IMG/VR virus record: IMGVR_UViG_3300028920_000039
Location: 71,047-135,046 of that record
DNA length: 64,000 nt
DNA from: a virus
Direction: 5' to 3' (one strand)
The notes beneath the pieces are model-generated. The model was not told the DNA's origin, did no database searches, and saw only the letters and a list, made by a program, of their open reading frames with translations. This document shows positions 14,992 through 26,535 of this stretch, piece by piece. How positions within the stretch are numbered: the first letter of the stretch is position 1; each line of letters starts with the position of its first letter. Position numbers and translations under genes: made by a program.

Positions 14992-15720
14992 ATGGACCTC
15001 TATCGTTTACTACCTGAAATCATCAGGGCTAGGGATCGCCTAGCCAGTGGTGTTGGTCTGAACCTGGACGATCAGGAAACGATTCTTCAGAAGATCTTCT
15101 ATGCTCTTGAAGAGGAATGTGACACCACTGATGATCTGACGATAGGGCTGTCGGATCTGTATAACTTCGACACTTGCCCTCCACAGTACTTTCCGCTCTT
15201 AGAGTTGTTCCTAGGAACCCAGTGGCCTGCAGATTGGTCTGAAGAACGGCGCAGATTGGTGCTCTCGGCAATTGTTAAGCTGTATCATACCTCTGGACAA
15301 AGATTGAGCTGGGTGGCCGTTCTCAACCTATTTGGCCACACTGGCTTCTTTCCGTGGGAGTTGTGGAAAGAGACCATATATGAAGACTTTGACTATTCGT
15401 TGTATGGAGCTGACGACGGGTCTTATTACTATCAGTATCATGCCGCTCGGATTGATGTTCGTAACGTCAATAGAACCCTGCTCTCCTTGACGGATGAAGA
15501 ACGCCAGATATTGGAGTACTTTCGTCCTATCCATGTCTTGTTTCGGCAGGAAGGCATCAACATTCCGCCAATGGCGTCAACATGTAAGAATCAATCTTCC
15601 GACACTTTCGAAGGTGATGCCGGCTACGCTTTGGAAGAGGAGCTTTCCTTAGTGACTGATGAATTTTCGATAGTTGAATCGTGCAGGGCAAGATGTGAAA
15701 CAGCAGTGGAGCCACCTTAA
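14992..15720 (+). CDS. baseplate protein, P2 gpI-like (paralogue 1)
   Basis: '[16 protein letters not shown]', '[10 protein letters not shown]', 'RPIHVL'; paralogous to the N-terminus of the next gene. Confidence 0.7.
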
Positions 15721-17528
15721 TGGATCTGTATAGGCTACTACCCGCAGTGCTTCGCTTGAAGGACTCTGCCACTAAAGGCAGTGTTTCAGAAGGCATTATC
15801 GAGCGTTTAGTGTATGCACTTGAACAGGAGAGCGACGTCACCAATGATGAGGTTGCAGGCCTGCTTGATCTGATCAACGCTGATGAGTGCGATGGTCAGT
15901 ATTTGTTGTATATCTCCTTAACGCTTGGCTTCGCTGTTTCAGATACCGACACTTCCCCTACTCTTGACTTTTCTCGTTGGTTTGTCAAGAACTTGATTTC
16001 CTTCTACAAGATCAAAGGCACCCACCCGTCATGGATCAAGCAGTGGTCCTACGTCGAGAACGAGCCCACTATGCGAGCGTGGGAGCTGTGGAAGGATGAG
16101 CCATATGAGAGGGGCCCTTACTATCGATACGGCGAGGATGAAGGTGACTACTATCAGGGTATCATCCACGCTGCTCGGTTTGATCTGTATCGGTTGGTAG
16201 CCGGCAACCCCGTCTTTTTGTCAGTACTGGAAGCATTTCCCCATGTCAATCCGATAGAGTGGTGTCGGCCCATCCATGTACTGCTCCGGAAGAACTACTA
16301 TCTGACAACCATACGTGATGCACCTGACGCTAACCTCCAGGAGGATTTGGATCTCATCGCCGCCCTGCGGTTGTTAGATGAGATGGATCCGCCGGAAGAT
16401 GAACTTTTCTTAGAGGTGCTATGCATCACTTCTTGTGAAACCTATTGTGAGCAGACCGAAGAATCCGGTTGTATGACGGGTTGTGAGGTTGGTTGCGAAA
16501 TAGGCATTGAGTGGCCAGGGCCGACAGGTGATACCGGTGATACAGGAATCGGTTGTCCGGCTTGCGAAGAAGCCATTATGTATGATGAGAACCAAGGAGC
16601 TCGTATTGCACAATTTGCAGTTGAGGATGGTGCTTGTTGGGAGGAAGGTGAAGAAGTTTGCTTGATGGTGCCTATACGCGACTTCATAGGGCAAGGCGTG
16701 ATCACAGACATCGCGTACATCAGCTACAACGACGTCGTGTATCCTATTCTTGAGGTGGAATTTCATGGTCCTATACCTGACTTTACGGGGTTTGCTGACA
16801 TAGGCATTGATCCAGGAGATGCTGATCATGGTACAGTTTGTCACGGAATGTGCATCTGTCCTGCTTGTGAGGAAACGGAGATTCATGACTACAGTGCCGG
16901 TGGCGGAGGTTGGGTTGAGTTCAGAGCTTACCTGCCTCATTGTTGGGGTGTTGGTGAGACTGTTTGTGTCTACATTCCTGATCTTGGATACATGATTGAA
17001 GGGGAGATCAGTGCCAGACGGTTTGATGATCCATGGACCGTGTACCGTGTAGTGTCAGGCTCTCTCGGTTCCGATCCTACCGGATATGATGCAGTTGTGT
17101 GTCATGGGATGTGTCCTCCTCAAGGTGAGACAGGCGATACGGGCAATACGGGTGGGACAGGCGATACGGGCAATACGGGTGACACAGGCGATACGGGCGT
17201 TGGGGAAACCGGTCCTACAGGTTTGCAAGCAGGTCCGACAGGAGAAACAGGTCCGGCAGGCGGCACACGTGGTCAGACGGGTCTAACAGGAGATACAGGA
17301 GATACAGGAGATGATGGTGAGGATGGTGAGGATGGTGGGACAGGCGATACGGGTGACACAGGTCCGGTTTACAATCCTACCTTGCACAGTATGGATGTTA
17401 TCATCAATTTGCGCCTAGACACCAAAGACTATCAGTATCTCCCTTGTAATGTACAAGTGATACCTGGAACAGGAACCGGCACCTGGACTACTTGGGAAAC
17501 AGGAACTGGTTGCCCGGCTCCTGCTTGA
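15720..17528 (+). CDS. P2 gpI-like baseplate/fibre protein with six-Cys motif, duplicated Cys-rich domains and Gly-X-Thr collagen-like repeats
   Basis: N-terminus paralogous to 14992-15720; CITSCETYC...CMTGCEVGC; two 'CPACEE...CW..GE.VC...VCHGMC' domains; GDT/GNT/GET/GPT repeats. Confidence 0.75.
17122..17370 (+). repeat. collagen-like (Gly-X-Thr)n coding repeat
   Basis: [25 protein letters not shown]...[26 protein letters not shown]; repeated 'acaggcgatacgggcaatacgggt' and 'acaggagat'. Confidence 0.9.
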
Positions 17529-25697: not shown

Positions 25698-26535
25698 TTG
25701 TATGATAGCTGTGCTAGTTAGAGACAGATTTCCTTTGACCAAGTTGTGTTGTGATTGGATCTGCGATAGTGACGATTGTGAAGGCATCTATTTCAACCTT
25801 GTGGCTTTCGACGATCGCAGCACAGATCCTCTCATGTTCAGATACCTTGAAGAGCGGTTTCAGGGCAATGTGGTACCTGTTTCTACGGATGACAGGATGT
25901 CCGCCCCTGCGCGAGTAGGCATGGCTCGTCAGACTGTTGTGAAGCTGTTTCTCAGTGGTGCAGGCTGTGACTATCTGTTTCTTCTGGACAGTGATGTGAT
26001 TGTTACCAAGGCTACTATCAACGAAGCCATTCGTGATTACAATCTGCTGGCTGAAAAGATGCCTGTTGGTGGCTATACACTTTACGCATTGAACCACATT
26101 GAAAAGACACACCCATGGAACAGTAATAAGATCTTCGCCGAGATCAGCTTGACAGGGGATGCTCATTTGTTGTATCGCCGAGACCACCTAGAAGAGGTCG
26201 GTAATCATTTCAGTGTCCGCCCCGGAGGATTTGCGGATCAGCAGATTCATGCCATCTATGATCATGGTCTGAAGTTCTGGACTCGCATCACACCTCCGTA
26301 TGAAGTTCAGCATCTCGGGTTCGGAGAAGGTGTGAGTTTCTGTTGGGATTGGGATGGCATCGCTCCTTTTTGGGTAAGAAGGCCGTATTGGAGCCATACT
26401 GGAACAAAAGGAGTTATCAATGTTACGGGGTTCGATGTATTACAATATGCTGACCTTGTAAATCGGTACGGTGGTCTTGAAGCACCGAAACTCTATCTGG
26501 AAATGATGAAGGAGAAAACCAATGAATGTTCGTGA
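25690..26535 (+). CDS. GT-A fold glycosyltransferase (GT2-like)
   Basis: 'VAFDDRSTD', 'YLFLLDSDVIV', 'VQHLG'. Confidence 0.75.
   Translation: MVSCMIAVLVRDRFPLTKLCCDWICDSDDCEGIYFNLVAFDDRSTDPLMFRYLEERFQGNVVPVSTDDRMSAPARVGMARQTVVKLFLSGAGCDYLFLLDSDVIVTKATINEAIRDYNLLAEKMPVGGYTLYALNHIEKTHPWNSNKIFAEISLTGDAHLLYRRDHLEEVGNHFSVRPGGFADQQIHAIYDHGLKFWTRITPPYEVQHLGFGEGVSFCWDWDGIAPFWVRRPYWSHTGTKGVINVTGFDVLQYADLVNRYGGLEAPKLYLEMMKEKTNECS

Follow-up and report, generated by a model that had tools for sequence, protein, structure and literature searches.

A phage gene run that joins a radical SAM-SPASM enzyme and glycosyltransferases to cysteine-motif baseplate and fibre proteins

We analyzed a 64,000-nucleotide (nt) stretch of phage DNA (the window), which is the second half (positions 71047-135046) of the 135,046-bp IMG/VR virus record IMGVR_UViG_3300028920_000039, and focused on a run of genes in which a radical S-adenosylmethionine (radical SAM, rSAM) enzyme and glycosyltransferases (GTs) lie among genes for the distal baseplate and tail fibre. 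The record is rated complete by CheckV, and the + strand carries almost all genes of the genome. Window positions 14992-27422 form one co-directional run in which every junction, overlap or gap, is at most 30 nt. A sequence-only reading of this DNA had placed three modifying enzymes (here P0002, P0003, and P0004) in a single + strand run between baseplate/fibre genes and tail genes, and the open reading frames (ORFs) and junctions are as it described. The ORFs of the run and the features within them (lengths in amino acids [aa]) are as follows.

14992..15720, + strand: gpI-like baseplate protein, short paralogue; Tail_P2_I (PF09684) 2.7e-7, 31 bits against a cut-off of 20.6
15720..17528, + strand: P0001 (602 aa), candidate substrate; gpI-like N-domain, six-Cys motif, two CPAC...CHGMC domains, G-X-T stalk, C-terminal knob
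16422..16496, + strand: six-Cys motif of P0001 (aa 235-259); two CxxxCxxxC triplets seven residues apart
17124..17363, + strand: collagen-like G-X-Y region of P0001 (aa 469-548); about 26 triplets, mostly G-X-T
17533..18399, + strand: protein of unknown family, 288 aa, 18 Cys, rich in Trp and Tyr
18396..19001, + strand: 201-aa protein of unknown function; likely start ATG 18396
19030..23316, + strand: P0002 (1428 aa), six domains (MptE-like, four GT8-like, methyltransferase)
19030..19794, + strand: P0002 domain 1, MptE-like/DUF115 (Maf-like); PF01973 E 4.7e-4, 20.4 bits against a cut-off of 34.6
19819..22749, + strand: P0002 domains 2-5, four tandem GT8-like GT-A domains; Glyco_transf_8 (PF01501) 1.1e-7, 32.1 bits against 24.3, for repeat 1
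22777..23316, + strand: P0002 domain 6, class I SAM methyltransferase; Methyltransf_24 7.3e-16, with weak matches to TylF (0.004) and RMNT_CmcI (0.09) (sugar O-methyltransferase)
23286/23313..25697, + strand: P0003, with the two halves that follow
23313..24689, + strand: P0003 N-half, rSAM and SPASM; Pfam Radical_SAM 7.3e-19, over the cut-off
24690..25697, + strand: P0003 C-half, GT9-fold (heptosyltransferase-like) GT-B domain; Pfam GT9 (PF01075) 4.2e-8, 33.3 bits against a cut-off of 22
25690..26535, + strand: P0004, GT-A glycosyltransferase; no Pfam family; AF2 pLDDT 89
26522..27422, + strand: two paralogous ~145-aa phrog_5417 proteins, tail-fibre-N-like (26522-26980 and 26991-27422); end of the module

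The P0003 gene is likelier to start at ATG 23313 than at the listed GTG 23286; the ATG overlaps the P0002 stop codon by 4 nt (ATGA), and the database copy of the protein has 794 aa. The best NCBIfam families for P0003 were PapB (2.7e-57), QhpD (TIGR03906; 1.8e-55), the nif11-peptide maturase (1.3e-54), and the SCIFF maturase (9.2e-49). The best solved structure was the SCIFF maturase CteB (5WGG), at 2.1e-37 with the single sequence and 2.7e-59 with the family profile, and the alignment spans the rSAM core and the whole SPASM domain, to residue 448. The CX3CX2C motif (C95, C99, C102) is invariant across 13 full-length homologues (41-51% identity), as is the SPASM seven-Cys set (C345-x12-G-x4-C363, C398-x2-C401-x5-C407-x3-C411, and C430). 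Judged by these family matches, the rSAM half of P0003 is a member of the Cys-thioether (ranthisynthase-like) clade, in keeping with the SPASM maturase type assigned to it from the sequence at the outset. Its scores were lower than each curated equivalog cut-off (PapB, 194.5 against 340 bits; QhpD, 188.4 against 453; SCIFF, 166.5 against 425). Since P0003 falls below every curated family cut-off, we assign it to a separate subfamily within the clade. Formylglycine formation of the anaerobic sulfatase-maturase type was considered and rejected; the match (7.5e-26) was 30 orders of magnitude weaker, and the C-x-P-x-R motif is absent.

To place P0003 among its relatives, IMG/VR loci were collected. 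A single-protein query gave no match, and a profile of 13 homologues gave 80 loci (designated here by L numbers). The close family (hidden Markov model E < 1e-75), clustered at 60% identity, comprised 23 lineages including the window, in which we called ORFs and scanned for motifs. In 18 of these 23 lineages, an ORF with at least two overlapping CxxxCxxxC motifs lies just upstream of the rSAM gene on the same strand. In L023 the gene abutting the rSAM gene has Cys-Glu motifs with looser spacing, and in the more distant L030 a Cys-repeat ORF lies just downstream. In total, a Cys-repeat structural gene stands beside the rSAM gene in about 20 of the 22 lineages with flanking sequence. In L002, L004, and L015, the contig stops too early or just one motif is present; L024, with no motif in the 10 kb upstream, is the only such lineage. 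A search for rSAM-SPASM genes co-occurring with Cys-motif baseplate genes, as the sequence-only reading had suggested, was strongly positive, with about 20 independent phage lineages.

The Cys arrays are parts of proteins of 300 to 2600 aa. Wherever the N terminus of an array protein is recognizable, it is a gpI-like (Tail_P2_I) domain, and the array follows directly after it. Over 17 lineages, the residue at tetrad position +1 is Glu in 44% of cases, Gln in 27%, and Thr in 9%, giving the consensus C-[E/Q]-x-x; Thr, Ser, Ala, or Val predominate at +2 and Gly, Ser, Thr, or Ala at +3. Glu, Gln, and Thr after Cys are the acceptor types of known ranthionine enzymes. The pairing of enzyme and array is kept in L010, L012, L013, L017-L020, L022, and L028, which have little else in common with the window beyond the rSAM gene (some have a GT9-like gene). 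We concluded that action of the rSAM enzyme on the fibre Cys motif is well supported by association; the enzyme adjoins Cys-repeat fibre proteins in about 20 distinct relatives, which makes it very probable that these phages cross-link their own tail parts, and perhaps also coat them with sugar. Thioether chemistry at the motif is the best inference from family membership.

Two of the arrays beside rSAM homologues are long. The gene at L019:1591-3438 encodes 615 aa with 131 Cys and about 125 consecutive near-perfect C-E-x-x tetrads, and that at L017:1460-3667 encodes 735 aa with 151 Cys and about 120 C-T-x-G tetrads. Neither array matched a Pfam or NCBIfam family, and their sole match was phrog_6085, of unknown function. 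Similarly, for the big Cys-repeat proteins of distant lineages, PHROGs gave no family except the repeat itself (phrog_6085). A reverse DNA-pattern scan for C-E-x-x arrays yielded true Cys arrays, with short flanks, in about 13 of 80 loci; the rest were out-of-frame repeats.

In the window, the candidate substrate is P0001. Its N terminus and the protein encoded at 14992-15720 are paralogous (32% identity, E 7e-29). The short paralogue ends in SCRARCET, with a vestigial C-x3-C, and its C terminus aligns onto the start of the P0001 Cys motif; its orthologues in relatives carry 11 to 44 CxxxCxxxC motifs. Homologues of P0001 were found in L003, L005, L006, L011, L015, L016, L021, L027, and L045. 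Glu follows four of the six motif Cys of P0001, and when the protein was shuffled, at least two CxxxCxxxC motifs appeared in 0.1% of trials. By BLAST, P0001 aa 228-284 align to the long Cys arrays of L019, L020, and L026. Since the arrays of relatives align to this segment, the six-Cys motif appears to be a minimal copy of a homologous C-[E/Q]-x-x module rather than a chance occurrence. The collagen-like region matched Pfam Collagen at 2.5e-5, just below the cut-off, and tail-fibre PHROGs at 3.7e-14. The sequence-only reading had noted both the six-Cys motif and the collagen-like repeats in this gene; both are present, and among all proteins of the 135-kb genome only P0001 has either.

P0001 also contains two domains of about 95 aa (window 16548-17114); the L003 homologue (L003:2015-4420) has four, which alternate with collagen-like runs. 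The domain has six conserved Cys, with a C-[PD]-A-C-E start, an internal CW..GE.VC pair, and a [VI]-C-H-G-x-C end.

We favour, with somewhat better than even confidence, the reading that the run is a conserved phage module that post-translationally tailors distal baseplate/fibre proteins in three steps. In the first, the rSAM-SPASM half of P0003, working in the cytoplasm of the host, would modify the Cys-tetrad segment located after the gpI-like domain in P0001; the vestigial Cys segment of the short paralogue would probably also be modified. Cys sulfur would be joined to a side-chain carbon of a nearby Glu, Gln, or Thr, as in ranthionine-type thioethers. The arrays of relatives, which reach about 125 tetrads at most, would be stapled by the same enzyme, giving a covalently laddered rod.

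The Cys motifs could instead be ordinary structure (metal sites, disulfides, or Fe-S-like ligation in a trimeric fibre), with the rSAM-GT9 protein targeting a sugar or a small peptide. P0001 has just six motif Cys, and its CPAC and CHGMC sequences resemble domain-bracketing pairs; at least one complete viral genome has a Cys-repeat ORF without an rSAM gene; and carbohydrates are substrates of some SPASM/twitch enzymes, one of which, cytosylglucuronate decarboxylase, weakly matches P0003. However, the strongest rSAM matches are all Cys-thioether maturases, far above the sugar enzymes, and it is difficult to account in another way for rSAM genes adjoining Cys arrays in about 20 lineages. Moreover, Glu or Gln after 71% of Cys fits an acceptor better than a metal site, and the window contains no small precursor-like ORF with Cys motifs. 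We consider ordinary structure quite improbable. The enzyme class is typical of gene clusters for ribosomally made peptides with post-translational modifications (RiPPs), and bacteriocins with S- or O-glycosylation exist, so that a phage-borne RiPP pathway (for a secreted ranthipeptide or a glycocin-like product) might lie among the tail genes by chance. That is extremely improbable, since the module lacks a short precursor, a protease, and an exporter, and the Cys arrays lie covalently within 300- to 2600-aa proteins with baseplate N-domains.

The second step of the favoured module would involve the GT9-fold half of P0003 and P0004, which would add host-derived sugars to the same appendage. 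The AF2 model of the GT9-like domain (pLDDT 93) gave VIA Z scores of 23.7 with 3TOV, 22.4 with WaaF, 20.9 with WaaC, and 19.9 with TibC, against at most 12.4 with other GT-B folds. D18, D232, H237, and C277/C281/C293/C297 are invariant in 15 phage homologues. The first three align with GT9 motifs of 3TOV and WaaC, and D18 (G-D) and D232/H237 (D-(T/S)-x-x-x-H) are candidate nucleotide-sugar motifs with presumed catalytic roles. A GT9-like gene is fused to the rSAM gene or directly follows it in 16 of the 23 lineages, and covalent fusion is found in the window phage and in at least four representative clusters. The phage-type GT9-like family comprises 430 clusters (E <= 1e-30) in a library of 1.8 billion representatives; the majority stand alone and are about 320 aa long, and a few are rSAM fusions. 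We know of no GT9 enzyme fused to a radical SAM enzyme among known systems.

Many GT9-like representatives of about 650-1030 aa (e.g., P0146, P0167, and P0191) match the profile in four to six stretches, which suggests tandem duplicated GT9-like domains. In L025 (10384-12771), a 795-aa protein has a C-terminal phage GT9-like domain and an N-terminal half with no match to the rSAM profile, pointing to another fusion partner.

P0004 accompanies the rSAM gene in 12 of the 23 lineages. Foldseek matched its model to GnT-I (1e-8), the LH3 GT domain, POMGnT1, SpsA, and TarP, with E values from 1e-8 to 1e-6 for GnT-I, LH3, SpsA, and TarP. Its invariant residues are D41 (DDxxxD) and D100 and D102 (DxD). 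PDB sequence searches found nothing for P0004 or the P0002 N-domain. Homologues of P0004 are C-terminally fused to a phrog_5417 domain in L005 (12247-13599), L011 (4297-5613), and L021 (13197-14486), a hint that the GT might dock on the baseplate or ride in the virion. The two stand-alone phrog_5417 proteins at the end of the module had been described as tail-collar-like; their nearest ESM-Atlas clusters carry PF12571 (tail-fibre N-terminal) in about 15% of members, which lends moderate support to a tail role. Matches of the phrog_5417 profile to beta-lactamases in the PDB were judged spurious.

The third and weakest step would fall to P0002, which might initiate, extend, and methyl-cap an oligosaccharide, most plausibly on Thr of the G-X-T stalk. 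Domain 1 had a weak match to phrog_4603 sialyltransferase (6.9e-4), and its Atlas neighbours are MptE-like in 13-34% of members; the P0002 homologue P0130 carries PF01973, and L024 has a stand-alone homologue of the domain. In a MAFFT alignment, the four GT8-like repeats share 24-30% identity and 21 invariant columns; repeats 2-4 taken alone are below the Pfam cut-off, and BLAST self-comparison missed the repeats. DxD motifs lie at aa 355, 608, 834 (ETD), and 1085. A search of 5.8 billion proteins gave only eight relatives of P0002, in which two to four GT modules separate the MptE-like end from the methyltransferase end. Among the loci, relatives occur only in L002 and L003, in addition to the stand-alone MptE-like gene in L024. 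Collagen-like G-X-T/S repeats were present in 4 of 4 genomes with an MptE-like/GT8 gene (including the window) versus 2 of 19 other lineages; this tracking is suggestive. No epimerase or nucleotidyltransferase genes were found in the phage, and hence host sugar nucleotides must serve. Virion glycosylation by the phage GTs is plausible.

The most serious rival for the sugar steps is a split of functions, in which the rSAM enzyme modifies the fibre Cys motif and the GTs remodel the host envelope (lipopolysaccharide [LPS] core or another surface glycan). The LPS core is built by GT9 and GT8 family enzymes, among them WaaC/WaaF (Z 20-24), so the sugars might go to the host envelope. The phage lacks sugar-nucleotide genes and uses host pools; the GT9-like gene is missing in 7 of the 23 rSAM lineages; and P0002 is limited to the closest relatives, as expected of an accessory host-interaction gene. 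Against this, the GT9-like domain is fused to rSAM here and in the representative clusters mentioned above and adjoins it in most others, three loci encode the GT-A enzyme and a tail-fibre-N-like domain as one fusion, and the genes lie among structural rather than early or host-takeover genes. Z scores are also about equal for the protein heptosyltransferase TibC and for WaaC (19.9 versus 20.9). Envelope remodelling is countered only by the gene fusions and the position among structural genes, and we regard it as rather unlikely; its purpose would be, for instance, a superinfection block or keeping progeny off debris.

The window also contains a 7-deazaguanine DNA-modification block. Positions 28985-32168, starting about 2.5 kb downstream of the enzymes, encode QueC, FolE (GTP cyclohydrolase I), a PRTase-like protein, a QueF-like protein, and a DpdA-like transglycosylase, and a QueE-like radical SAM gene lies 9 kb beyond the block, at 41405-42091. 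No QueD was seen in this gene set, and the QueF-like gene suggests preQ1-type DNA bases. The sequence-only reading had placed the modifying enzymes outside the DNA-metabolism block. They are indeed not inside it, but the nearby Que/DpdA-like genes had been missed. Only in the window, L002, and L003 does the block come after the module; in other loci the enzymes remain with structural genes.

This proximity raises the possibility that the enzymes belong to a DNA-hypermodification system that adds sugars or methyl groups to 7-deazaguanine or other phage DNA bases. The best PHROG of the P0002 methyltransferase domain is labelled "DNA methyltransferase," and radical SAM enzymes are known in thymidine hypermodification (PMC8989533). 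However, the known DNA-modifying rSAM is of the spore-photoproduct-lyase type without SPASM (PMC8989533), whereas P0003 is of the peptide-maturase type; the deazaguanine pathway has its own rSAM, the QueE-like gene; and rSAM, GT9, and GT-A genes stay beside fibre genes in lineages without deazaguanine genes. Four structural or unknown genes and a promoter-like gap also separate the two blocks. P0002, P0003, and P0004 had no match to the FolE, QueD, QueE, QueC, QueF, or DpdA families. We consider a role of the enzymes in DNA modification very improbable.

Tailoring of the baseplate and fibre proteins, the reading we favour, has several observations to contend with. The P0001 gene is 5.8 kb upstream of the rSAM gene rather than adjoining it, and P0001 has far fewer motif Cys than its relatives' proteins. 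Because P0003 is below every curated cut-off, its chemistry could differ from that of the named families. About 80 conserved residues before its core are at the position of the CteB RiPP recognition element (RRE) and could not be aligned to CteB with either the single sequence or the profile. The rSAM gene and Cys repeats occur without a GT9-like gene in the 7 lineages noted above, from which it follows that glycosylation is not needed for the rSAM step. The correlation of collagen-like repeats with the polyprotein represents perhaps two independent events, and the GT families are classic ones for the LPS core. No cultured phage with a close homologue was found. Lastly, G003 (the record of L140), a complete-rated 75-kb viral genome, has a 146-aa ORF (L140:10012-10452, - strand) with 18 CxxxCxxxC motifs and no Radical_SAM match anywhere; a host enzyme may act there, or the repeat may work unmodified.

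The literature search turned up no publication in which radical SAM enzymes modify phage virion proteins. The sequence-only reading had known of no characterized equivalent to the system, which was overstated: QhpD/QhpC and CrpC/CrpA install protein thioethers, and virus-encoded virion glycosylation is known. The system would bring together known types of chemistry on a class of substrate that is new. Dieter et al. (2026, PMC13692751), who make no mention of phages, showed that CrpC, an rSAM-SPASM enzyme of Methanococcus voltae, forms ranthionine thioethers in CrpA, a large protein with Cys repeats. Both systems have an rSAM-SPASM gene beside a large Cys-rich repeat protein, and CrpA has a C-X-X-Q/D-type motif and N-terminal substrate engagement (PMC13692751). 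CrpC/CrpA differs in being archaeal and cellular, with a 17-residue repeat and no GTs, whereas the phage system has a baseplate/fibre substrate, 4-residue tetrads, and a GT9-fold fusion. QhpD, according to a summary in the same paper, makes Cys-Glu and Cys-Asp thioethers in the protein subunit QhpC (PMC13692751). It is the nearest named cellular homologue of the P0003 rSAM half (about 30% identity, E ~1e-36), but P0003, at 188 bits against the 453-bit QhpD cut-off, is not an equivalog, and QhpC is a small enzyme subunit with three links and without repeats, virion context, or a GT partner.

PapB and CteB, the best family and the best structure for P0003, also act on Cys-rich substrates, but these are peptides of about 45-50 aa with a leader. 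Position i+4 in the phage tetrads is the next Cys, compared with C-x3-D in PapA, so ring topology must differ. The NCBIfam CXXX-repeat system (TIGR04115 maturase) is likewise a bioinformatic pairing of an rSAM family with CXXX-repeat targets; P0003 matched it at 8.4e-24, and its 84.7 bits against a cut-off of 350 are much weaker than the PapB or QhpD match. The phage Cys arrays had no match to any curated target family.

For the sugar steps, TibC/AAH and WaaC/WaaF share the GT9 fold (Z 19.9-23.7) at 10-16% sequence identity, and TibC glycosylates a repetitive structural protein. Collagen-like G-X-T repeats of Bacillus BclA carry O-linked oligosaccharides; BclA differs from P0001 in being a bacterial exosporium protein served by other enzymes. 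By the title of entry 4RAP, TibC binds iron through Cys; the four invariant C-terminal Cys of the phage GT9-like domain are a candidate counterpart of this site. Chlorovirus PBCV-1 A064R, composed of two GTs and a methyltransferase, extends and methyl-caps a capsid glycan (PMC7826918), the same multidomain logic as that of P0002. Mycobacteriophage (Che8 and Rita) GTs glycosylate capsid proteins (Freeman et al. 2023, as cited in PMC11256854). P0002 differs from these in its families (MptE-like and four GT8-like), in its presumed fibre rather than capsid target, and in its coupling to rSAM.

A stiffer, glycan-shielded fibre that resists proteases and chemical attack in anoxic sediment would be the likely benefit of the module. 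We put forward tentatively, at a little less than even confidence, the fuller picture that many uncultured phages build part of the baseplate fibres from a hitherto unrecognized material, long C-[E/Q]-x-x arrays that a dedicated rSAM enzyme staples into a ladder of thioether rings and that a partner GT9-fold enzyme, in some cases fused to the first, then heptosylates or otherwise glycosylates, and that here a collagen-like stalk is also dressed by the six-domain P0002. If correct, this would be the first case of a virus tail that an enzyme cross-links covalently, with phages hardening their host-recognition apparatus by radical-SAM "RiPP" chemistry that serves structural biology rather than natural products. 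Capsid chainmail of the HK97 type is a covalent virion reinforcement, and the module would be a second. It could also explain orphan radical SAM genes, which are common in large phage genomes, and for protein engineering, (C-E-x-x)n arrays would offer a new fibrous scaffold that is encoded genetically and cross-linked by enzymes. The rSAM-GT9 fusion points to stapling and glycosylation as coupled reactions, a combination unknown in RiPP enzymology, and the arrays make it testable whether a folded protein with tandem sites in the hundreds can be processed by ranthisynthases.

In two further phage lineages, whose rSAM genes match the family profile with E values of 1e-20 to 1e-43, Cys-repeat proteins of about 200 aa come after the rSAM gene. 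In L053-L080 (e.g., L066:13576-14184 and L074:5593-6873), these proteins have CTCNCNY-repeat C termini and occur as up to four tandem paralogues, one of which has a tail-fibre(-assembly) PHROG domain. In L032-L040 (e.g., L032:7160-7738), the partner proteins end in C-Q-V-x-C runs.

The only public run that contains the stretch is a marine sediment metagenome, probably the source of the uncultured phage; no RNA holder of the stretch was listed. A close relative was absent from the 185,579 species genomes scanned, and no host or prophage was identified in them. The protein encoded at 17533-18399 had no Pfam, PHROG, or NCBIfam match and no homologue in the related loci; it is possibly a fibre partner or a lineage-specific receptor-binding tip. 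Matches in a promoter/terminator scan of the region were at shuffle level, and a 90-nt gap with a weak promoter-like site follows the phrog_5417 pair.

Upstream of the run, the window carries these structural genes.

5014-6546: tail sheath, followed by tape-measure-like and hub-like genes
12461-12853: gp25
12942..14990, + strand: Baseplate J/wedge protein, start of the distal baseplate genes; Pfam Baseplate_J 2.3e-7, phrog_219 3.9e-47

The order ahead of the enzymes is gp25, J, I, I', and Baseplate J is kept upstream of the module in L005-L008, L016, L021, L027, and L045. The sliding clamp and DNA polymerase genes come after the deazaguanine block.

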